DNA of 64,000 nucleotides, taken from an uncultured Chloroflexia bacterium. Its GTDB lineage: Bacteria > Chloroflexota > Limnocylindria > QHBO01. The notes beneath the pieces were generated by a model, which saw nothing but the letters and a program-made list of their open reading frames with translations, was not told the origin of the DNA and did not search any database. Shown one piece after another: positions 3,504-58,559 of this stretch (positions are counted from its first letter, which is position 1; every line of letters starts with the position of its first letter). The stretch is from positions 123,535 through 187,534 of the forward strand of contig CAWEUD010000043.1 of NCBI GenBank assembly GCA_963812115.1. Direction: 5' to 3'. The position numbers and the translations under genes were made by a program.

Positions 3504-4874
3504 TTACTCCTGGGGGACGTCTGATTCGGAGGCTGCGTCGTCCTCGGGGGCCGATGTCGCCGTCTCCCCGGCGGATGCATCGGTCCCGAGCGCGCGCTCG
3601 ATGAGCGTGTCGACCAGTTTACGGTTGCGGATCGTCATCCGCAGGTAGCTGCGGGCGCGGCGGCTGCCGAGCGACTCGGCCAGCTTCGGGTCGTTGCCGT
3701 ACCGAGCGAGCTGCTCGTCGATCTCGGCGGTGATCTCCTCGTCGCTGGCATCGATCCCCTCTTTCTCGGCGATCGCCGACAGGACGAGCAGGACCTTCAC
3801 TCGACGGGACGCGGGTTCGCGCAGTTCGGCGGTCAGCTCCTCGGGCGACTGCTTCGAGAGCGCCAGGTACTGGTCCAGGCCGATGCGCTGCTGCGCGAGT
3901 CGATTGCGCAGCTCGTCGCGCATGATCTCGACCTCGTTGGCGATCATGACCTCAGGCAGCTCCACCGTCGCGTTCGACTCGGCGAAGTCGATGATCCGGT
4001 CGGCGTAGCTGTGGCGCGCCTCGTCCACCGCCCGGCGCTGCAGCGCGTCGCGAATCTCCGCGCGCAGCGCGTCCACCGACGCAACGTCGCCCGTCGACTT
4101 CGCGAACTCGTCGTCGACCTCCGGCAGGATCCGTTCGCGCAGGTCGAGCATCTCCACGTCGAAGTGCGCCTGCTTGCCCTGCAGCTCCTCGACACGGTAG
4201 TCGGCGGGGAAGGTGATCTCGAACCCCTTCGTGTCCCCCACCTTCAGGCCGATGAGCTGGTCCTCCCAGCCCGGGATCATGCGATCCTCGCCGACGACCA
4301 GCGGCAGCCGGTCGGCGCTGCCGCCCTCGAAGGGTTCCCCCTCGATGGTGCCGGCGAACTTCACGGCGGCCAGGTCGTCCTTGGCCGCCCCGCGGTCGTC
4401 GATCGGCCGCAGGGTCGCCTGCTCGGCCCGCAGCTCCTCGATCACGCCGTCCACCTGCTCGTCGGTGACCTCGGGCGTCTCCAGGGTGAACGGGTAGTCG
4501 GTGTAGGCACCCAGCGTCACCTCGGGCCGCACGGCGACGGTCGCCGTGAACTTCACCGCCTGACCCTCGACCACGGCCGCCGGGTCGATCTCGACCTCCG
4601 GCTGGTCGATGGGCAGGATGGTGGTCTGGTCGAGCGCCGCGTCGTAGCTCTCCCCCACCAGGTGCTCGATCGCCTCGGCGATGACCGACCCGCGACCGAC
4701 GAAGCGGTCGATCACGTGCCGCGGGGCCTTGCCGGGCCGGAAGCCGGGTACCTTCGTGCGCTCGGCGACGTGGCGGTACGCGGTGGCGAAGTGGCGGCCG
4801 ACCTCGTCGGGAGGGACCTCGATCTCGAGCTGGACCCGCGAGCCGGGCTGCGGGTTGGTGGATACGTTGACCAA
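3504..4874 (-). CDS. tig: Trigger factor (peptidyl-prolyl cis-trans isomerase)
   Basis: Full-length trigger-factor-like sequence ([19 protein letters not shown]... at the N-terminus). The 57-aa low-complexity extension up to the 5042 ATG looks spurious, and the probable start is a TTG near 4874. The start is uncertain. Confidence 0.85.
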
Positions 4875-43278: not shown

Positions 43279-43369
43279 GGTGACAGGCTCGTCGAGCACT
43301 GCAAACGTCCGGCGCTGTGACCGACGCCCGATTTCGTGCCACCGCATCGGTCTGTACCATAGGCGGCCC

Positions 43370-46066
43370 ATGGACCGACCGATGCACGAGATCTTCGACC
43401 AGTTCAAGCACCAGCTCCCCGACATCGACCCCGTCGAAACGCAGGAGTGGATCGATTCGCTGGACGCGGTCGTCGACCAGGTGGGCGCCGAGCGCGCACG
43501 ATTCCTCCTCTTCAAGCTGCTCAAGCGGGCGCGGCAGCGGCAGGTTGGGTTGCCATCGCTGGTGCAGACCCGCTACATCAACACCATCTCGCCCGAACAG
43601 GAGCCGTACTTCCCCGGCGACGAGGCGATGGAGCACCGCATCCGGCGCATGATCCGCTGGAACGCGCTGGCCATGGTGCTGCGCGCGAACTCTCGCTTCG
43701 AGGGGATCGGCGGCCACCTGTCCACCTACGCCAGCGCCGCCAGCCTGTACGAGGTCGGCTTCAACCACTTCTTCCGCGGGCCCGATGGCGAAGGCAGCGG
43801 CGACCAGGTCTTCTTCCAGGGCCATGCCGCCCCCGGCATCTACGCCCGCGCCTTCCTCGAGGGGCGGCTGGACGAGGACAACCTCGACCACTTCCGCCGA
43901 GAGGCGCTGACCCCCCAGGGCCTCTCCTCGTACCCGCACCCGCGGCTGATGCCCGACTTCTGGCAGTTCCCGACGGTGAGCATGGGCCTCGGCCCCATGA
44001 ACGCGATCTACCAGGCGCGTTTCAACCGCTACCTGGCCGCGCGCGGCATCGCGGATACGAGCAGGAGCCGCGTATGGGCGTTCCTCGGGGACGGTGAGAT
44101 GGACGAGCCGGAGTCGATCGGCGCCCTCTCGCTCGCTGCGCGCGAGGGCCTCGACAACCTGGTCTTCGTCGTCAACTGCAACCTGCAGCGGCTCGACGGT
44201 CCGGTGCGCGGCAACGGGAAGATCATCCAGGAGCTGGAGGCGCTCTTCCGCGGCGCCGGCTGGCACGTCATCAAGGTCATCTGGGCCCGCGAGTGGGACG
44301 ACCTGCTGGCGCGGGACAAGGATGGCGTCCTGCTCAACAAGATGAACGAGACGCTCGATGGCGACTACCAGCGCCTCTCGGTGGCCGATGGGGCCTACAT
44401 TCGCGAGCACTTCTTCGGCCCGGATCCGCGGCTCGGTGCGCTCGTCGAGCACCTCTCCGACGAGGAGCTTGCCAAGCTGCGGCGCGGCGGCCACGACTAC
44501 CGCAAGGTCCATGCGGCCTACGCGGCGGCCGTCGAGCACGCTGGCGCACCAGTGGTGATCCTGGCCAAGACGGTCAAGGGCTGGACGCTGGGTCCCGGAA
44601 TCGAGGCCCGCAACGTCACGCACCAGGCCAAGAAGCTGACCCAGGACGAGCTGAAGGTCTTCCGCGATCGCCTTGAGCTGCCCATCCCGGACGACCAGCT
44701 CAAGGAGGCTCCCTACTACCACCCCGGAGCCGACTCGCCGGAGATCGAGTACATGCTCGAGCGACGGCGGCAGCTGGACGGCTTCCTGCCGCAGCGCTCC
44801 GTGCATCCGATGCCGCTGGCCAACGCCGCCGATGGCGCCTACCAGGAGCTCTTCGCGGGATCGGAGCGGGCCGCCTCGACGACCATGGCCTTCAGCCGCC
44901 TGGTCCGGAACCTGACACGCGACAAGCAGATCGGGGCGCGCATCGTGCCCATCATCCCGGACGAGGCGCGCACCTTCGGCATGGATCCGCTCTTCAAGGA
45001 GATCGGCATCTACAACCCGCTCGGCCAGCGCTACACGCCGGTCGACAAGGAGCTGCTGCTGTCGTACCTCGAGAAGGAGGACGGGCAGATCCTGGAGGAG
45101 GGCATCACGGAGGCCGGCGCCATGGCCGACTTCACCGCCGCCGGGACCGCCTACGCCACCCACGGCCAGCCGATGATCCCGTTCTACATCTTCTACTCGA
45201 TGTTCGGTTTCCAGCGAACCGGCGACTTCGCGTGGGCCTTCGGCGACGTCCGCGGCCGCGGCTTCATGATGGGCGCCACCGCCGGTCGCACGACGCTCAC
45301 CGGCGAGGGGCTGCAGCACGACGACGGCCACTCGCACCTGCTCGCCACCACGCTGCCCAACATCCGCGCCTACGACCCGGCCTTCGCCTACGAGCTGGCG
45401 GTCGTGGTGCGCGACGGCATCGGGCGCATGTACGGCGAGGCCGCCGAGGACGTCTTCTACTACGTCACCCTCTACAACGAGAACTGGGCGATGCCGGCCC
45501 GTCCCGATGGCGTCGACGACGGAATCCTGCGCGGGCTCTACCGCTACCGGGCCGCCGAGCGCGGGTCGCGGCGTGTCCAGCTGCTGGCGTCCGGCCCCAT
45601 CCTGCACCAGGCCCTGCGTGCCCAGGAGCTGCTCGCGGAGCGCTACGACGTGGCCGCCGACGTCTGGAGCGCTCCGTCGTTCCAGCAGCTGCGGCGAGAC
45701 GCGCTGCAGGTGGAACGCTGGAATCGGCTCCATCCCGAGAGCGAGCTGCGGGTTCCGTACCTCGTCGAACAGCTCGCCGGCACGGATGGGCCGATCGTTG
45801 CCGCCACCGACTACATGAAGGCCGTGCCGCACATGATCGCGCCGTGGCTCACCGACCGGCAGTACACCGTCCTGGGGACCGATGGGTTCGGCCGCAGCGA
45901 CACGCGCGAGGCGCTTCGCACGCACTTCGAGGTGAGTCCGGAGCAGATCGCCTACGCGTCGCTCCACGGCCTGTGCCTGACCGATCAGGGCAGCCGCGAG
46001 GAGCTGGTCCGGGCGCTAGGTGAGCTGGAGATCGACCCGGATCGGCCCGATCCGGTGCAGTCCTGA
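43370..46066 (+). CDS. aceE: Pyruvate dehydrogenase E1 component, homodimeric AceE type
   Basis: About 900 aa, AceE-like along its length (TPP-binding [10 protein letters not shown], transketolase-like domains). The start is trimmed to the ATG at 43370. Confidence 0.9.
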
Positions 46067-46078
46067 ATCGAGCCTTGC

Positions 46079-46615
46079 CTACTCCCCGGAGAGGCGCGGA
46101 ACTCGCCGCAGCCGCGTCCCGCACTCGCCGCAGAACAGGTAGGAGGCCTCCGCCAGCGAGCCACAGGTGGGGCAGTACGTGGGACCCAGCATGCCGAGCG
46201 CGGCCCGAAAGGCCGCGACGAGGGCTCGCAGCGTGCGCTCCACCACGGCCGGCAGGCCGCGACGCCGAAACCAGCCCGCCCGAGCGCCGTCGCCCTCCTC
46301 CGTGACAGCGTCGACGCCTGGTGGGGCCACGGCGCGGCGCTGCGCGACGCGGGCCCCTGGCGTCCACCCCGACAGGAAACGACTACGCGCGCGGTCGTAG
46401 GCCGCGCGCTCGGCAGGATCCGTGAGCATGTTCCGCACGGCGTTCACGACCCCCATCTCCTCATTCGCGCGCGGCGAGCGGTTACGGTCGGGGTGGAACC
46501 GGCGGGCGAGCCGCCGGCAGGCGGCCGAGACTTCCTCGCTGGAGGCTGAATCATCGAGCTGGAGGAGACGATAGACGTCGCGCTCCGGATGGTAGGGCAG
46601 CAGGCTGGGATGCAT
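46079..46615 (-). CDS. J-domain protein with a C-terminal CxxC...CxxC zinc ribbon
   Basis: J-domain (DVYRLLQLDDSASSEEVSAACRRLARRFHPDR) and C-terminal CPTCGS...CGECG. Confidence 0.7.
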   Translation of the reverse strand: MHPSLLPYHPERDVYRLLQLDDSASSEEVSAACRRLARRFHPDRNRSPRANEEMGVVNAVRNMLTDPAERAAYDRARSRFLSGWTPGARVAQRRAVAPPGVDAVTEEGDGARAGWFRRRGLPAVVERTLRALVAAFRAALGMLGPTYCPTCGSLAEASYLFCGECGTRLRRVPRLSGE

Positions 46616-46720
46616 GGGACGGGGGGATGGTAGCGGACATTGCGCACCGCCGCTCGGGCGCCATTTAACAAGCTGAGCTTCCTATTTTGCTAAGCGGGAT
46701 TGCCAATTGCGAATAAGGGG

Positions 46721-46749
46721 TTGACAACTGCATGCGCGAGCCGTATATT
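46721..46749 (+). promoter_or_regulatory. Near-consensus sigma70-type promoter: -35 TTGACA (46721-46726), 17-nt spacer, -10 TATATT (46744-46749), in an AT-rich island
   Basis: Read directly: ggggTTGACAactgcatgcgcgagccgTATATTgccg. AT-rich upstream (UP-like) tract at 46680-46720. About 50 nt upstream of a strong SD and the ATG at 46802. Confidence 0.6.
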
Positions 46750-46801
46750 GCCGTCGTACTTCACTGAACCGTAAGCGAACATCTTCAAAGTGAAGGAGCG
46801 A

Positions 46802-46960
46802 ATGGCAATGTTGGACTATCGAATGCACTACGCGGTGATGGCGACGCACGATCGCCTGCGCGCCCATCGCCAGCAGGAGATCACGCGCGACCGCGGCGTG
46901 CGGCGCATCTTCCGCCTGGTGGGCGGCCGGAGCGGCGCCCGCAGCGAATCAGGCCGCTGA
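46802..46960 (+). CDS. Small basic protein (52 aa), hypothetical; not present in the supplied ORF table (below the size cutoff)
   Basis: ATG preceded by AAGGAG at 5-nt spacing. Translation: MAMLDYRMHYAVMATHDRLRAHRQQEITRDRGVRRIFRLVGGRSGARSESGR. The stop lies 1 nt before the DUF2089 ATG. Confidence 0.5.
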   Translation: MAMLDYRMHYAVMATHDRLRAHRQQEITRDRGVRRIFRLVGGRSGARSESGR

Positions 46961-46961
46961 G

Positions 46962-47396
46962 ATGGCGCGCGACGTCATCTCCACGTGCCCCGTCTGCGAG
47001 GGCGAGCTGCTGATCACGCGTCTGCACTGCCGCAGCTGTGGCACCGCCCTCGAGGGCGAGTTCGGGGTCGGCCGCTTCGGTCGCCTCTCTCGCGAGCAGC
47101 TTGCGCTCCTGGAAAGCTTCCTAAGGGCGCGCGGCAACCTCAAGGAGATGGAGCGCGAGCTCGGCATCTCCTACCCCACCGTTCGCGGCCGCGTCGACGC
47201 GCTGGTTCGCGCGCTCGGCCTGGGCGACGGCGGGCTGCCCGCCGACGAGGACGACGAGCCGATCTCCGATGCGCAGCAGCCCGCGCCTGCTTCCGACGTG
47301 GCGGCGACACGCCGCGCGATCCTGGAGCGCCTCTCGCGCGGTGAGATCGACGCAGCCGCCGCGGCAGCCGAGCTCCGGTCGCTGGCGGAGAGCTGA
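46962..47396 (+). CDS. DUF2089 family protein (N-terminal zinc ribbon plus HTH)
   Basis: CPVCEGEL...CRSCGT zinc ribbon and the conserved LSREQLALLESFLRARGNLKEMERELGISYPTVRGRVDAL. Confidence 0.8.
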   Translation: MARDVISTCPVCEGELLITRLHCRSCGTALEGEFGVGRFGRLSREQLALLESFLRARGNLKEMERELGISYPTVRGRVDALVRALGLGDGGLPADEDDEPISDAQQPAPASDVAATRRAILERLSRGEIDAAAAAAELRSLAES

Positions 47397-47397
47397 G

Positions 47398-48385
47398 ATG
47401 GCCAGGTTCGTTCGCGTGCAGAACATCCGGCACACACTCGGCGCAGAGGGGCGTTTCGACCTGAAGGTCACCTCCGCAGACGTCCGCGTGCGCGGGAATG
47501 ATGGGGCGGACCTGAGCGTGCGGGCCACGTTCGAGATCCGCGCCGAATCCGAGCAGGAGGCCGACGAGATCTTCCGGCGCGTCCAGCTGCTGACCGAGGC
47601 CGGATCCGGGCGCGTCTCGGTCCAGGAACCGGACGGCGCGCCGTCGATGCGCGGAATGATCGACCGCCTGCTGCGCGGCCGCGGCGGCGTCGAGCTGAGC
47701 GTGGAGGTGGAGGTGCCCCAGGCTGCCGAGGTCCGGCTCGAGACCGTCTCCGGGGACGCGACCGTCGAGGGAATGCTCGGGGCGCAACGCTACACGACCG
47801 TCTCGGGCGACCTGTACCTCACCGACGCGGGCGGCAGCATGCGCGTGAACACGCGTGTCGGGCGACGTCACCGTGCGCGGTGAGCGAGCCATCTCGCTGC
47901 GCAGCGAGGCCGTTTCGGGGGACCTGAGCGTCGCGGTGCCACGCATCGAGACCTGCGCAGCCAGAGCGTCTCCGGTGACGTCGAGGTGGAGGGCGAGCTG
48001 GCACCGACGGGCGAGTTTCGCGCCGAGACGGTGAGCGGAGACGTATCGGTCGGGCTGCTGGGGGGCGCGAACCTTCGAGGTTCGCGGCATCTCGACCGAC
48101 ATCAGCAGCGACCTCGACCACCGAATCGAAGGGCGCCTGGATCGGCGGCGGGTGGTGGTCGGCAGCGGTGGTCCGACATTCGTCTTCAATTCCATGTCCG
48201 GTGACCTGAGCATCCGTCGGCCGAGGCGGGTGACGCCGTTGGCGCCGGATGCGCGACCTTCCGCTCCGACGGCGACGCTCCGGGCGCCGGACGAGGCGGA
48301 GCAGCTGGCCGTGCTGCAGGCTCTCGAGCGCGGCGAGATCGACGTGGACGAGGCGAGCCGGCGGCTGGGCGGCGGCGATGCGTGA
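47398..48385 (+). pseudogene. DUF4097 ('toastrack'/putative adhesin; LiaG/LiaX-YvlB C-terminal-like) repeat protein with at least three frameshifts
   Basis: Repeated beta-strand units ending VSGD(V/L) (…TVSGDATVEG…, TVSGDLYLTD, AVSGDLSVAV, SVSGDVEVEG, TVSGDVSVGL, SMSGDLSIRR) spread over three frames between 47398 and 48385. Confidence 0.7.
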
Positions 48386-48757
48386 CGAGCTGGGGACCAT
48401 CCTGCGCCTCGTGGCCGAGGGCAAGCTGAGCGCGGAGGAGGCCGCCCCCATCATCGAGGCGCTCCAGCGCCGGCAGGCGTACGACGCCCCGCAGGCGACG
48501 AGGCCGGCCACCGGGGTGAAGACCATGCCGGTCCCCCACGAGGACGCCGAGTGCGGATCCAGGTCACGGAGCGTGGACGTCACGTCGTGGACCTCCGCAT
48601 CCCCCTCGCGTTCGCGGCGGCCGCCGCACGGGTCGTTCCGGGGATCCCGGACACCTACGCAGCCATGATCGAGCAGGCGGTCGACAACGAGACCGCCGGG
48701 ATCATCGTCGACACCGAGGACGAAAGCGGTGACGGCGTCCTCATCAGCTTGGAGTAG
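48378..48757 (+). CDS. SHOCT/LiaX-N-terminal-like small protein, with one frameshift near 48540
   Basis: Frame A: MRDELGTILRLVAEGKLSAEEAAPIIEALQRRQ. Frame B continues …VRIQVTERGRHVVDLRIPLAFAAAAARVVPGIPDTYAAMIEQAVDNETAGIIVDTEDESGDGVLISLE. Confidence 0.5.
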
Positions 48758-48764
48758 CAGGACC

Positions 48765-51062
48765 ATGGACGTGACCACAGCCCCCGCGGCCGACGCCGCC
48801 CGGGCCTCCGGCCCCCGGCTGACGCGGCCGCTGCGGGAGCGCGACTTCCGCCTCGTGTTCGCCGGCGAGAGCATTTCGCTGCTGGGGGACCAGTTCCATT
48901 TCGTTGCCCTGGCCTGGCTGACCCTGCAGCTCACGGCCTCGGGCCTGGCGCTTGGCACGGTGCTGACCGTGGCCGCCGTGCCACGCGTCATCTTCATGCT
49001 CGTCGGCGGAGCACTCTCCGACCGGATGTCGCCGCGGACGCTGATGCTTGCTTCGAACGCGATCCGGGCCGCGGTCGTCGGCGTGGTTGCGGCGCTGGTC
49101 CTGACCGGCAACGCGCAGCTCTGGCAGCTGTACATCCTCGCCGGCATCTTCGGCATGGTCGACGCGTTCTTCTACCCGGCCATGAACACCATCGTGCCGA
49201 TGCTGGTTCGGGAGTCGCTCCTCTCTCCGGCCAACGCGCTGATCCAGGCGACGCAGCAGCTGTCCGGCCTGATCGGCCCGGCATTGGCGGGCGTCGTCAT
49301 CGCGGCCGTCGAGACCGGGCCGGCGTTTGCCATCGACGCCGTCTCGTTCGCCGTCGCGGCCGGAGCACTGCTGCTCGTCCGTGGCGGCCGACGCCTCCCC
49401 GCACAGGCCGCCGCCGAGGGCGAGCGATTGCTGGGCACGATCGGTTCCGGCGTCGCCTACGCGTGGCGCGACCCGCCCGTCCGCGCGCTGATCTTGCTGA
49501 CGGCTGCGTTCAACTTCGGGTTCATCGGGCCGATCGGCGTCGGCATTCCGTACCTCGCCGACCAGCGCTTCGGCGGCGGGGCGATCGCGTTCGGCGTGCT
49601 GATGTCCGCATTCGGCGCCGGAGCGCTCTTGGGCGCCATCCTGGCCGGCTCCCTGCGGCACGTCCCGCGGCTGGGCGCAGTGGTCATGGTCGTGGCTGCC
49701 ATCCTGGGCCTGGAGCTCGCGCTGCTCGGCATCGTGCCGAACCTGGCGCTGGCACTCCCGGTGGGCGCGACGATGGGCGTCGGGGTCGGCTTCATCAACG
49801 TCCGGGTCATCTCATGGCTGCAGGCGCGGACGCCGGAAGGCATGCGTGGCCGGGTCATGAGCCTCGCGATGCTCGGCTCGCAGGGCCTCGGCCCGTTCAG
49901 CCTCGTCGTCGCGGGTCTGCTCATCGAATTCGGGGCGGTCTCGGTCATGTTCGCGGTGGCCGGATCGATCATCGTCCTGGCTGTGCTGGCGGGAGTTCGT
50001 CATGGGGGTACCCGCGCAGATGCGCGACGAGGCAGCGTCATGACCGCGCTCGCGATCGAGGCCCGGGGACTGGTCAAGGAGTTCGAGCGCGGACGTCGCA
50101 CGACCTGGCAGCGGCTGCGCCGCAAGCCCGACCGCCGGGAGCGGTTCCGCGCCGTCGACGGCGTCGACCTGGAGGTGGCGCAGGGCGAGATCTTCGGCGT
50201 GCTGGGGCCGAACGGCGCTGGCAAGACGACGACCATGAAGATGCTGGCGACGCTCCTCGAGCCAACGGCGGGGAGCGCCCGAGTCCTCGGCCTCGACGTC
50301 GTCACCCAGGCGCGCGACGTTCGGCGCCGCATGGGGGCCGTCCTCTCCGACGGGCGCAGCCTCTACTGGAAGCTGACCGCCCGGGAGAACCTGGAGTACT
50401 TCGCCGCGCTGTACCACGTGCCGCCGGCAGAGGCCCGGGGACGCATCGACGGCGCGCTGCGCGCCGTCCGCCTGGAGGATCGCGACGAGGACTACGTGGA
50501 GCGCTTCAGCACCGGCATGCGCCAGCGGCTGGTGCTCGCCCGCGCCCTGCTCCCCGACCCGGAGCTGCTGCTGCTGGACGAGCCGACGGTCGGCCTGGAC
50601 CCACAGTCGGCGCGCGACCTTCGGGACCGCGTGCGCGAGCTGAAGGCGCAGGGACGGACGGTCCTGCTCACCACGCACTACATGGAGGAGGCCGATCAGC
50701 TCTGCGACCGGATCGCGATCGTCGACCACGGGCGCGTCGTGGCGCTGGACACGCCGGCGCGCCTGAAGCAGACGGTGGGCGCCACCGAGGTGGTGCGCCT
50801 GGAGGTCTCGCCCCTCGGGGACGGCACCTTGAACGGGCAGCTCGTTTCGCGCCTGGCGGGCGCGGGCCAGGTCGTCCAGCAGGAGCTCGGGACCGATGGA
50901 CGCCTCAGCATCACGGTCCACTGCCGCAGCGCCCGCGACTTCGTGCCGGCCGCCTTCGACGCGGCGCGCGCGGAAGCGGCGCGCATCGACCACGTCGAGG
51001 TGGTCCCGGTCACGCTGGAGGACGTCTTCATCTCGCTCACCGGCCGGGGGCTGCGAGAGTGA
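48765..51062 (+). CDS. MFS transporter (425 aa, DHA3/EntS-like) fused in frame, with no stop, to an ABC transporter ATP-binding domain (ATG at 50040)
   Basis: 12 to 14 TM MFS portion, then MTALAIEARGLVKEF…GPNGAGKTTT (Walker A), FSTGMRQRL (signature), LLLDEPTVGLD (Walker B). An ATGA lies at the junction in the +1 frame, so the fusion may be an artefact of an upstream indel. Confidence 0.7.
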   Translation: MDVTTAPAADAARASGPRLTRPLRERDFRLVFAGESISLLGDQFHFVALAWLTLQLTASGLALGTVLTVAAVPRVIFMLVGGALSDRMSPRTLMLASNAIRAAVVGVVAALVLTGNAQLWQLYILAGIFGMVDAFFYPAMNTIVPMLVRESLLSPANALIQATQQLSGLIGPALAGVVIAAVETGPAFAIDAVSFAVAAGALLLVRGGRRLPAQAAAEGERLLGTIGSGVAYAWRDPPVRALILLTAAFNFGFIGPIGVGIPYLADQRFGGGAIAFGVLMSAFGAGALLGAILAGSLRHVPRLGAVVMVVAAILGLELALLGIVPNLALALPVGATMGVGVGFINVRVISWLQARTPEGMRGRVMSLAMLGSQGLGPFSLVVAGLLIEFGAVSVMFAVAGSIIVLAVLAGVRHGGTRADARRGSVMTALAIEARGLVKEFERGRRTTWQRLRRKPDRRERFRAVDGVDLEVAQGEIFGVLGPNGAGKTTTMKMLATLLEPTAGSARVLGLDVVTQARDVRRRMGAVLSDGRSLYWKLTARENLEYFAALYHVPPAEARGRIDGALRAVRLEDRDEDYVERFSTGMRQRLVLARALLPDPELLLLDEPTVGLDPQSARDLRDRVRELKAQGRTVLLTTHYMEEADQLCDRIAIVDHGRVVALDTPARLKQTVGATEVVRLEVSPLGDGTLNGQLVSRLAGAGQVVQQELGTDGRLSITVHCRSARDFVPAAFDAARAEAARIDHVEVVPVTLEDVFISLTGRGLRE

Positions 51063-56919: not shown

Positions 56920-57747
56920 TCAGGACGAGGTGGCGCGCTCCGCGACGGGAATGGCGTCGGCGGGGCCGGAATCGCTGGCGGCACCGGCGTCCCGCAACAG
57001 CAGGCGGGAGATATGCCACAGACGTCCGTCGCGCTGCAGAATCTCGGCCTCCGCAGACGCCGTGAAGTGGCTGCCGTCGGCCGCACGCAGCATCACGTCA
57101 CCATTCCAGCGGCCGTCCGCGAGATAGCGGTTCCACGTGGCCTCCGTCCATTCCACCGCGTGAGCCACGATGTCGGCCACCCGCAGCGAGCGAAGCTCCT
57201 GTGCCTCGAGCCCCAGGAGACGCAGCGCGGCGCGCGACGCATCCAGCAGTCGGGATTCCTCGTCCGCCACCAGAACCAGATCGCCGTCGCCCCAGAGCGG
57301 CGCCGGGCGCCGCTCCAGCAATCGCGCCACCGCCTGCTCCAGGTCCTCGATGCCGAACGGTATCTCGAGTGCCGCGAGCAGGGCATCCGACTCGATCGCT
57401 TCGGCTTCGCCTCGCAACGCCTGCAGGTCGGCGGAGCAGATCAGCAGCGGGACCTGCTGGAGCAGCGGATCTGAGCGCACGGGTGCCAGCCACTGCCAGC
57501 CTTCCGGGTCGCGGCCACCGCCCTGGAGTCCCAGGTCGAGGACAATCACGTCCGGCCGCGTCTCGGCGATGGCGCTCGCCTCCAGGCCGTCGCCGGAGAG
57601 CGCGGTGACCTCGTACCCCGCCAGCTGCAGGATCTCGGTGACCACCGATCGCAGATCGACATGTCCCTCCACCAGCGTGATACGGGCCGATGTGCGAGTT
57701 GAAACGTCACCTTCCACGGCAACCTCCGCTGAGCCGTCGCGAGACAT
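56920..57747 (-). CDS. Response-regulator receiver domain protein with a C-terminal PAS domain (no DNA-binding output)
   Basis: REC-like region (…PDVIVLDLGL…LLICSAD…) followed by a PAS-like fold (…LVLVADEESRLLDASRAALRLLGLEAQEL…NGDVMLRAADGSHF…). Confidence 0.6.
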   Translation of the reverse strand: MSRDGSAEVAVEGDVSTRTSARITLVEGHVDLRSVVTEILQLAGYEVTALSGDGLEASAIAETRPDVIVLDLGLQGGGRDPEGWQWLAPVRSDPLLQQVPLLICSADLQALRGEAEAIESDALLAALEIPFGIEDLEQAVARLLERRPAPLWGDGDLVLVADEESRLLDASRAALRLLGLEAQELRSLRVADIVAHAVEWTEATWNRYLADGRWNGDVMLRAADGSHFTASAEAEILQRDGRLWHISRLLLRDAGAASDSGPADAIPVAERATSS

Positions 57748-57767
57748 GCAAGGACGCTACCCTGTTT

Positions 57768-57804
57768 CACCATATGTCTTCCGTCATACATCTTACATAT
57801 GGTG
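57768..57804. promoter_or_regulatory. Perfect 9-bp inverted repeat CACCATATG-N19-CATATGGTG in the divergent intergenic region between the REC-PAS and Crp/Fnr genes
   Basis: Read directly from the sequence. It occupies most of the 77-bp intergenic spacer. Confidence 0.4.
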
Positions 57805-57824
57805 CCAGGTGGTAGGGTTATTGC

Positions 57825-58559
57825 GTGGCTGTCCTGTCGCGCGATATCCGACACAACGTCATCCTGTCCGCCCTCCCGGAGCACGAGTTCTCGCGGGTTG
57901 CGGCAGACCTTCAGCCCGTGAGCCTGGAGCGCGGCTCCGTCCTGGAGCGCGAGGACTCCGAGATCGACTACGTCTACTTCCCCGTCACGGGCATCGCCTC
58001 CCTGCTGGCGGTGAGCCCCGACGGCGAATCGGTCGACACGACCATGGTCGGGCGGGAGGGGATGACCGGCCTGGCCGTCTTCCTGGGCACCGGGCAGATG
58101 CCGGTTCGCACCATCGTCCAGGTGTCGATGACCGGCGCACGCCTTCCCGCGGCGGCGCTCCGTGCAGAGCTGGAGCACGCGGGCAAGCTCCTGAGCCTGC
58201 TGCAGCGCTACACCCAAGTGGTGATGGTGAGCATGGCGCAGCTCATCCTCTGCAACCGGGCGCATCCACTCGACCAGCGCGCGGCGCGCTGGTTGCTGCA
58301 GGCTCACGAACGCGTCGAGGAGAGCCCGTTCGGCGTGACCCAGGAGTTCCTGGCGGAGATGATCGGCGTGCAGCGACCATCGCTCTCGGTGATCGTGCGT
58401 CAGTTCAAGGATGCGGGGCTGATCACCTACTCTCGCGGAAGCGTCCGCATCCTCGACGCCAAAGGGCTGCTGAACCGGGCGTGCAGCTGCATCACGGTCA
58501 TCCATGAGGAGGAACGGCGGCTCAAGGAGACGGCGGAGCACTACCGCCTGGGAACCTGA
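57825..58559 (+). CDS. Crp/Fnr family transcriptional regulator
   Basis: cNMP-binding beta-barrel plus a C-terminal HTH (…EFLAEMIGVQRPSLSVIVRQFKDAGLI…). Confidence 0.8.
   Translation: MAVLSRDIRHNVILSALPEHEFSRVAADLQPVSLERGSVLEREDSEIDYVYFPVTGIASLLAVSPDGESVDTTMVGREGMTGLAVFLGTGQMPVRTIVQVSMTGARLPAAALRAELEHAGKLLSLLQRYTQVVMVSMAQLILCNRAHPLDQRAARWLLQAHERVEESPFGVTQEFLAEMIGVQRPSLSVIVRQFKDAGLITYSRGSVRILDAKGLLNRACSCITVIHEEERRLKETAEHYRLGT

Follow-up and report, generated by a model that had tools for sequence, protein, structure and literature searches.

A conserved near-consensus promoter upstream of a DUF2089–Toastrack operon in Candidatus Limnocylindria

The liaI promoter of Bacillus subtilis is weak and depends on the response regulator LiaR. 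A gene neighbourhood combining DUF2089 and Toastrack domains has been proposed to be a lia-operon-like (Lia/PSP-like) module of envelope-stress signalling, relaying membrane-associated signals to transcription, and the promoter of this module was not described (Ravi et al. 2024, PMC11237479). DUF2089 genes are also found with ABC (ATP-binding cassette) transporter genes in the leaderless-bacteriocin loci of Firmicutes (enterocin DD14, bawcin and thucin A; PMC7332713, PMC10707071, PMC9484092). Here we analyse a 64-kb stretch of DNA from an uncultured Chloroflexia bacterium (the window, numbered from its first letter), in which an operon of the DUF2089–Toastrack type lies back to back with a J-domain gene and is preceded by the motif TTGACA-N17-TATATT. 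On the basis of its sequence and conservation, we consider it probable (roughly 0.85) that this motif is the primary-sigma (sigma-A/sigma-70-type) promoter of an operon conserved in Candidatus Limnocylindria.

The operon resembles the module of PMC11237479 in its order of genes: DUF2089, with a zinc ribbon, a helix-turn-helix (HTH) and a SHOCT-like tail, is followed by Toastrack, SHOCT-like and transporter genes. It differs from that module in three respects. Its first gene is an additional one, which encodes a translationally coupled, arginine-rich peptide of 50 amino acids (aa); among the operon genes, none was seen for LiaI-LiaF-TM, PspC or a sigma factor; and the Toastrack and SHOCT-like genes are frameshifted in the window.

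The -35 hexamer TTGACA (46721-46726, plus strand) matches the consensus at all six positions and the -10 hexamer TATATT (46744-46749, plus strand) at five of six, without a TGn extension. They are separated by a 17-nt spacer of unconserved sequence, ACTGCATGCGCGAGCCG (46727-46743, plus strand), and the promoter in its context reads AAGGGG-TTGACA-ACTGCATGCGCGAGCCG-TATATT-GCCGTCG. The hexamers and their spacing are exactly those originally described, with 11 of the 12 consensus positions matched. When sigma-70-like sites with at least 10 of 12 matches were sought on both strands of the whole window, this site was the only one in the 64 kb. In 100 composition-matched first-order Markov simulations, the mean number of such sites was 0.09 and no simulation reached 11. 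A consensus scanner applied to 40-55 kb likewise returned this site as its sole match, with 0.5 expected at the scanner's looser threshold. By promoter geometry, transcription is predicted to start at 46756 (range 46755-46758, plus strand), 7 nt after the -10 hexamer; this position aligns with a semi-conserved CA[T/G] that lies 6-9 nt past the -10 in orthologues. In the window, TTGACA lies 87 nt from the ATG at 46808. The site combines a -35, a -10 with both A2 and T6, a spacer within 17 ± 1 bp, and the orientation and distance to a gene with a ribosome-binding site that characterize sigma-70 promoters. With canonical sigma-70/sigma-A promoters (TTGACA-N17-TATAAT, with or without a UP element), of which Escherichia coli rrnB P1 and synthetic consensus promoters are examples, it shares the perfect -35, the spacing of 17 bp, the TAnnnT -10, an AT-rich 5′ tract and a start predicted about 7 nt past the -10. 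From these features we infer both the identity of the sigma factor and a high intrinsic promoter strength.

Conservation across relatives points in the same direction. A one-genome-per-species scan yielded 59 loci encoding relatives of the DUF2089 protein, about 49 of which, at 65-81% DUF2089 amino-acid identity, come from Candidatus Limnocylindria or Chloroflexota metagenome-assembled genomes (MAGs); a few of the records are labelled with other taxa. Since Limnocylindria ranks as a class within the Chloroflexota, the description of the genome as 'actinobacteria-like' has to be withdrawn. An alignment anchored on the hexamer TTGACA comprised 47 sequences, namely the window and 46 loci. TTGACA occupies the same position in all 47, and the spacer, whose information content is near zero, measures 17 nt in 39 and 18 nt in 7. 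The -10 hexamer follows the pattern [T33/C10/A3]-A46-n-n-n-T46, with A2 and T6 kept in 46 of 47 sequences. Thus, across relatives the -35 is invariant and the -10 drifts, which sets this promoter apart from the canonical sigma-70 type. The same TTGACA-N17 arrangement is found about 60 nt upstream of DUF2089 in three loci that lack the small open reading frame (ORF), and in every one of the 50 Limnocylindria-type loci examined, TTGACA precedes the first gene of the operon. It does so too in a closer relative (L060; 86% nucleotide identity over the operon), where the promoter is TTGACA-N17-TATTCT.

The pattern TTGACA-N16-18-[T/C]AnnnT was matched 46 times on both strands of 374 kb of related loci, and 43 of these matches are this promoter. 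The near-consensus arrangement is accordingly rare locally, in keeping with the first proposal, although not in the actinobacteria-like host in which it had been placed. Similarly, the near-perfect -10 is present in the window as TATATT but is specific to this genome, the hexamer being TATTCT in L060 and TAnnnT in general. Fixed hexamer positions and fixed spacing around a freely varying spacer are the phylogenetic footprint to be expected of a functional primary-sigma promoter.

Related motifs were seen elsewhere in the fetched loci. Distant DUF2089 genes from an Anaerolineales MAG (L051), a Chloroflexota MAG (L052) and an Armatimonadetes MAG (L055) stand directly behind TTGACA-N17-TATACT/TATAAT, at about -52 from the start, which hints that near-consensus promoters may be general to DUF2089 operons; in the first two loci, a repeat of the form TTGA(C)...(G)TCAA overlaps both the -35 and the spacer. 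The only other conserved promoter-like sites in these loci, of the form TTGACA-N17-TATCTT, lie at about 852 in L035 and about 635 in L042 (both on the minus strand). These two are mutually orthologous and lie on the strand opposite to DUF2089, about 3.2 kb upstream of that gene.

We considered whether control of the operon might reside mainly in the transcript rather than in the promoter. In most loci, 85-92 nt separate TTGACA from the start codon, which would give a leader about 52 nt long. In the window it would extend from 46756 to 46807 (plus strand); it is A/C-rich and conserved in length, without conserved secondary structure, and it carries the Shine-Dalgarno sequence AAGGAG (46793-46798, plus strand) 9 nt before the ATG at 46808, with a GGAG that is almost invariant in the alignment. 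A cis-regulatory RNA in this leader, such as a riboswitch, an attenuator or a thermometer sequestering the Shine-Dalgarno sequence, would be in keeping with the conserved length and with the adjoining J-domain gene. Moreover, a CUUCAC...GUGAAG pairing could partly mask AAGGAG in the window, and one subclade has CTGG-TAGGAG-CCAG around the Shine-Dalgarno sequence. However, RNAalifold found no conserved pairs among 29 orthologous leaders, and the window leader folds poorly (z = +1.15; 178 of 200 shuffles folded at least as well). Rfam reported only three tRNAs in the whole window at gathering thresholds and, in a permissive search of 46500-47000, only two weak sub-threshold matches, to RT-15 and to a eukaryotic long non-coding RNA model. 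Because there are no conserved pairs, the fold is weak and Rfam offers nothing credible, we regard a riboswitch, RNA thermometer or attenuator as very unlikely to be the main control point.

Directly 5′ of the -35 lies an AT-enriched, UP-like block (46681-46720, plus strand), with the column consensus ...TTGC[T/C]A-[A/T]TT-nn-GAA-nnn-GGG-n. In the 47 loci, the 40 nt 5′ of TTGACA are 51-67% AT, compared with about 29% further upstream. The block contains a degenerate dyad, TGCTAA-GCGGGA-TTGCCA (46688-46705, no strand assigned), which is centred at about -59.5 from the predicted start and is orthologous to the sequence T[A/G]GCAA-N6-TTGC[T/C]A that many relatives carry some 60 nt upstream of theirs. 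An exact palindrome is present in 6 of the 59 loci and, in each of them, at this position only; L020, with the palindrome at 3732-3749, is an example. The mean best dyad score was 3.51 of 6, against 2.82 ± 0.12 for shuffles, a comparison that the relatedness of the sequences inflates; within the window, the dyad pattern is matched 3 times with 1.1 expected, which is not significant. The CAATTG palindrome noted originally does occur, at 46704-46709, where it overlaps the right half-site of the dyad, but it is unconserved and reads TAATTC in L060. The dyad is a candidate only, either for an operator or for a part of the UP-like block.

Two other regulatory systems could be read into this dyad. 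Sigma-54 promoters have the form TGGCAC-N5-TTGC, with GG and GC exactly 10 nt apart, and classical psp operons are sigma-54 dependent. Several orthologues carry TGGCAA-N6-TTGCTA, which resembles TGGCAC-N5-TTGCW, and a sigma-54 promoter like that of the proteobacterial psp operons might be suspected on these grounds. The local spacing is GG-N11-GC instead of the obligatory GG-N10-GC, though, and many orthologues have TAGCAA, which lacks GG altogether, while the window copy is TGCTAA. The element is also symmetric, as an operator would be, and none of the surrounding genes that were examined was seen to encode an enhancer-binding protein. We consider a sigma-54 promoter here scarcely credible.

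The same verdict applies to a heat-shock operator shared with the J-domain gene. The operator of HrcA, the controlling inverted repeat of chaperone expression (CIRCE), has 9-bp arms and a 9-bp gap, TTAGCACTC-N9-GAGTGCTAA. In some orthologues the outer half-sites TTAGCA/TGCTA resemble the CIRCE ends, and the adjoining gene encodes a DnaJ-domain protein. Against this, the local arms and gap are 6 bp each, the inner CTC/GAG is missing and the window contains no CIRCE match at up to 3 mismatches. The J-domain protein, furthermore, is not a full DnaJ, with NCBIfam DnaJ scores all far below the cut-offs.

The base composition of the region had raised the question of foreign origin. The lowest-GC 180 bp of the window are at 46663-46842 (47.8% GC, against 70.2% overall and 54.4% for the runner-up), and the AT-rich island of the original prediction is thus the deepest dip in the window. 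The interval given for it, 46620-46800, is nevertheless 54.1% GC and not about 45%; its core, 46665-46795, is 46.6%. If the segment were horizontally acquired or mobile DNA that brought its own promoter, its standing as the lowest-GC stretch would be explained. The dip is, however, restricted to the intergenic spacer of about 190 bp and the first codons, between genes of 67-75% GC, and the 47 loci share an equal profile of AT enrichment. The order aceE / J-domain / peptide / DUF2089 / Toastrack is kept in about 35 species-level genomes. In the window, the 192-bp spacer has no further copy and no flanking or terminal repeats, and no tRNA gene lies within 10 kb. Because gene order is conserved, we reject foreign origin as hardly plausible. 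Instead, the low-GC island consists of the promoter with its leader and ribosome-binding site and, back to back with them, of the apparently -10-only promoter of the J-domain gene, against a genomic background of 70% GC.

After this dip, the lowest GC content in the window is that of 57690-57869 (54% GC), likewise an intergenic region between divergent genes. At about 57765-57800 it contains a 10-bp inverted repeat, CACCATATGT-N16-ACATATGGTG, which is likely to be an operator.

Nor is the view tenable that the hexamers are chance words without promoter function: AT-rich spacers do favour TTGACA-like and TATAAT-like words, and the start site is a prediction, but the conservation of TTGACA at the orthologous position, in about 50 genomes diverged to 65-81% DUF2089 identity and beside an unconserved 17-nt spacer, effectively refutes it, in line with the simulations and with the 374-kb pattern search.

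The gene that the promoter would serve first (46808-46960, plus strand) encodes the arginine-rich 50-aa peptide; its start, ATG 46808, was set by comparison of orthologues, and its stop lies 1 nt before the DUF2089 ATG, a junction that indicates translational coupling. Orthologues are present in 47 loci (at the equivalent position in L001-L048) and measure 44-61 aa, most of them 46-51. The stop falls between -1 and +4 nt from the DUF2089 ATG in 46 of the 47 loci and 11 nt from it in the remaining one (L021). The peptide evolves fast (mean column identity 33%) and appears by eye to be arginine-rich and hydrophilic with low-complexity stretches, yet it keeps an N-terminal M-x-[D/E]-Y-R, an RV[F/Y]RL motif and a C-terminal GRR. 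No Pfam or NCBIfam family matched it. In a collection of 5.8 billion proteins, it fell into 3 clusters, none of them named, and an identical 50-aa protein was present, unnamed and without a Pfam match; an exact-sequence lookup of the window's own peptide found none on record.

A cationic peptide gene of about 45-50 aa beside DUF2089, with ABC-transporter genes downstream, recalls the leaderless-bacteriocin loci. In contrast to leaderless bacteriocins, however, the Limnocylindria peptide is arginine-rich and hydrophilic by eye and looks neither amphipathic nor Trp/Lys-rich. In many genomes the locus is found in synteny beside aceE and is not accessory, and its DUF2089 protein has 144 aa and is paired with Toastrack, whereas the bacteriocin-linked DUF2089 proteins have about 90-98 aa. 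Because of the composition of the peptide and the core-genome synteny, the bacteriocin parallel is unlikely to apply here.

The DUF2089 protein itself (46962-47396, plus strand; 144 aa) contains a zinc ribbon and an HTH (Pfam DUF2089 1.2e-21, Zn_ribbon_DUF2089 9.6e-13, both above the cut-offs) and is presumed to be the transcription factor of the module. No solved structure was found among DUF2089 relatives, and a literature search turned up no functional work on DUF2089. We also examined whether DUF2089 might mimic sigma-70 region 4 and compete at the -35, and discarded this idea, as Pfam gives generic HTH matches only (HTH_30, IclR, Fis-type).

Next in the operon is a Toastrack (DUF4097, LiaG-like) gene (47398-48385, plus strand), broken by 1-nt indels at about 47854 (+1), 47949 (-1) and 48070 (+1). 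It is intact in L060, where it encodes 328 aa with DUF4097 annotated, and in L001, where the protein has a weak NCBIfam LiaG match (7.5e-9, below the cut-off); the DUF4097 match of the broken window copy is weak. The gene that follows (48378-48757, start approximate, plus strand) has an N-terminal SHOCT-like domain (Pfam SHOCT-like_DUF2089-C 1.2e-8, above the cut-off) and is frameshifted by a 1-nt deletion at about 48464; in L060 it is intact, at 126 aa. Over 1.84 kb, the only indels of the window relative to L060 are four of a single base each: 47854 (+1), 47949 (-1), 48070 (+1) and 48464 (-1). All four lie outside long homopolymers, and the aceE, J-domain, peptide, DUF2089 and major facilitator superfamily (MFS) genes are unbroken; the indels may be pseudogenizing mutations or local assembly errors.

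The order aceE / divergent J-domain / peptide / DUF2089 / Toastrack / SHOCT-like is found in about 35 loci and continues into MFS in about 20. Junctions within the operon measure 0-4 nt, and the MFS and ABC transporter genes at its 3′ end probably belong to it. In the window, 48729-51062 is a single 777-aa ORF in which an MFS transporter and an ABC-transporter ATPase follow one another without an intervening stop, whereas L060 retains a mere 73-aa remnant of the MFS gene before the ABC gene. Towards its transporter genes, the operon seems to be evolutionarily unstable. With the zinc ribbon and HTH of DUF2089 adjoining Toastrack and SHOCT-like domains, the operon has the composition of a DUF2089–Toastrack module, and the downstream 'stress-like module' of the original prediction can be equated with this Lia/PSP-like (phage-shock-protein-like) arrangement (Ravi et al. 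2024, PMC11237479). The assignments of the two flanking genes, DUF2089 and the J-domain gene with its zinc ribbon, have also stood.

The J-domain (DnaJ) gene (46079-46615, minus strand; Pfam DnaJ 3.2e-14) encodes a C-terminal zinc ribbon, for which zinc-ribbon families scored below cut-offs, and it is conserved and divergent in 33 loci. Between its -10-like hexamer TACCAT (46627-46632, minus strand) and the ATG there are 11 nt, and a Shine-Dalgarno sequence is lacking. A hexamer of the form TA[CG][CG]AT, mostly TACCAT and also TACGAT or TAGGAT, starts 17-21 nt before the ATG in 30 of the 33 loci, leaving a gap of about 12-13 nt. Similarly, aceE (start near 43370-43382) is preceded by a 20-nt box, GCATCGGTCTGTACCATAGG, at about 43349-43368, whose end is 7-9 nt from the start codon and which about 20 Limnocylindria loci have in common; it has the appearance of a -10 for a leaderless mRNA (TACCAT) with a conserved 5′ extension attached. 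For neither gene was a Shine-Dalgarno sequence found or a conserved -35 seen by eye, and both transcripts appear to be leaderless or near-leaderless. This suggests that a near-leaderless J-domain transcript is made back to back with the consensus promoter.

Several of these results weigh against our assignment of TTGACA-N17-TATATT to a strong primary-sigma promoter. The start site is predicted only, in a class that is uncultured. Because aceE and the J-domain gene appear to have -10-only, leaderless-type promoters, the rules of promoter strength are not established in this lineage, and in this too the locus departs from canonical sigma-70 systems. UP elements are A/T tracts at -40 to -60 with the consensus nnAAAWWTWTTTTnnnAAAnnn, and the upstream tract agrees, by our own count, with only about 7 of the 14 specified positions of the E. 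coli sequence. The AT enrichment of the tract is conserved in 47 loci. The window copy of the dyad has 4 of 6 complementary positions and 2 mismatches to the pattern, which is the level of chance. The DUF2089 HTH, NLKEMERELGISYPTVR, is invariant across Limnocylindria whereas the dyad differs among subclades, and covariation therefore provides no support for binding of the dyad by DUF2089. Finally, two downstream genes are frameshifted, and the module may be non-functional in this genome.

We propose that RNA polymerase holoenzyme would contact the invariant TTGACA and the TAnnnT -10, 17 bp apart, possibly assisted by the AT-enriched upstream block, and would start transcription near 46756. The product would carry an unstructured, A/C-rich leader, about 52 nt long and bearing a strong Shine-Dalgarno sequence, and the operon genes would be translated as a tightly coupled series. 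DUF2089 might then regulate its own operon through the upstream dyad or the -35 region, with the strong promoter restrained until a membrane-proximal signal arrives through Toastrack and SHOCT. The B. subtilis liaIH-liaGFSR system has Toastrack-type proteins (LiaG/LiaF-like) and a presumed envelope-stress response in common with this operon. The Limnocylindria operon, unlike liaIH-liaGFSR, has no two-component system and has a near-consensus core promoter, with which repression or derepression would fit better than activation. Given such a core promoter and an HTH protein encoded in the operon, the most economical model of its regulation is negative autoregulation by DUF2089 that a membrane-proximal signal would lift; this is speculative, and we put its chances at clearly less than even.

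A more elaborate scheme would join the invariant -35, the subclade-specific dyad and the coupled 50-aa peptide into an undescribed autoregulatory switch, in which DUF2089 silences the promoter at or next to the -35 until Toastrack/SHOCT captures it at the membrane. The peptide would be a co-regulator or an exported or bioactive peptide handled by the MFS/ABC transporters; for the latter option, the leaderless-bacteriocin loci with DUF2089 genes in Firmicutes offer a parallel. In such a switch, TTGACA would never drift while the -10 does because it is under a dual constraint, from polymerase and from DUF2089. We think this scheme unlikely, and a good deal more so than simple negative autoregulation.

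The existence of a real, conserved, near-consensus promoter at this locus is well supported, and the element is of an ordinary kind. A literature search for Chloroflexota promoters returned nothing. Phylogenetic footprinting over about 50 genomes places this promoter among the few well-supported ones predicted in Candidatus Limnocylindria, a class of Chloroflexota that is abundant in soil and freshwater but uncultured, and indicates that canonical -35/-10 recognition operates there beside promoters that appear -10-only and leaderless. The regulatory region and the previously unnamed first gene of an uncharacterized DUF2089–Toastrack module are now marked, and the Lia/PSP-like role proposed for it becomes testable.

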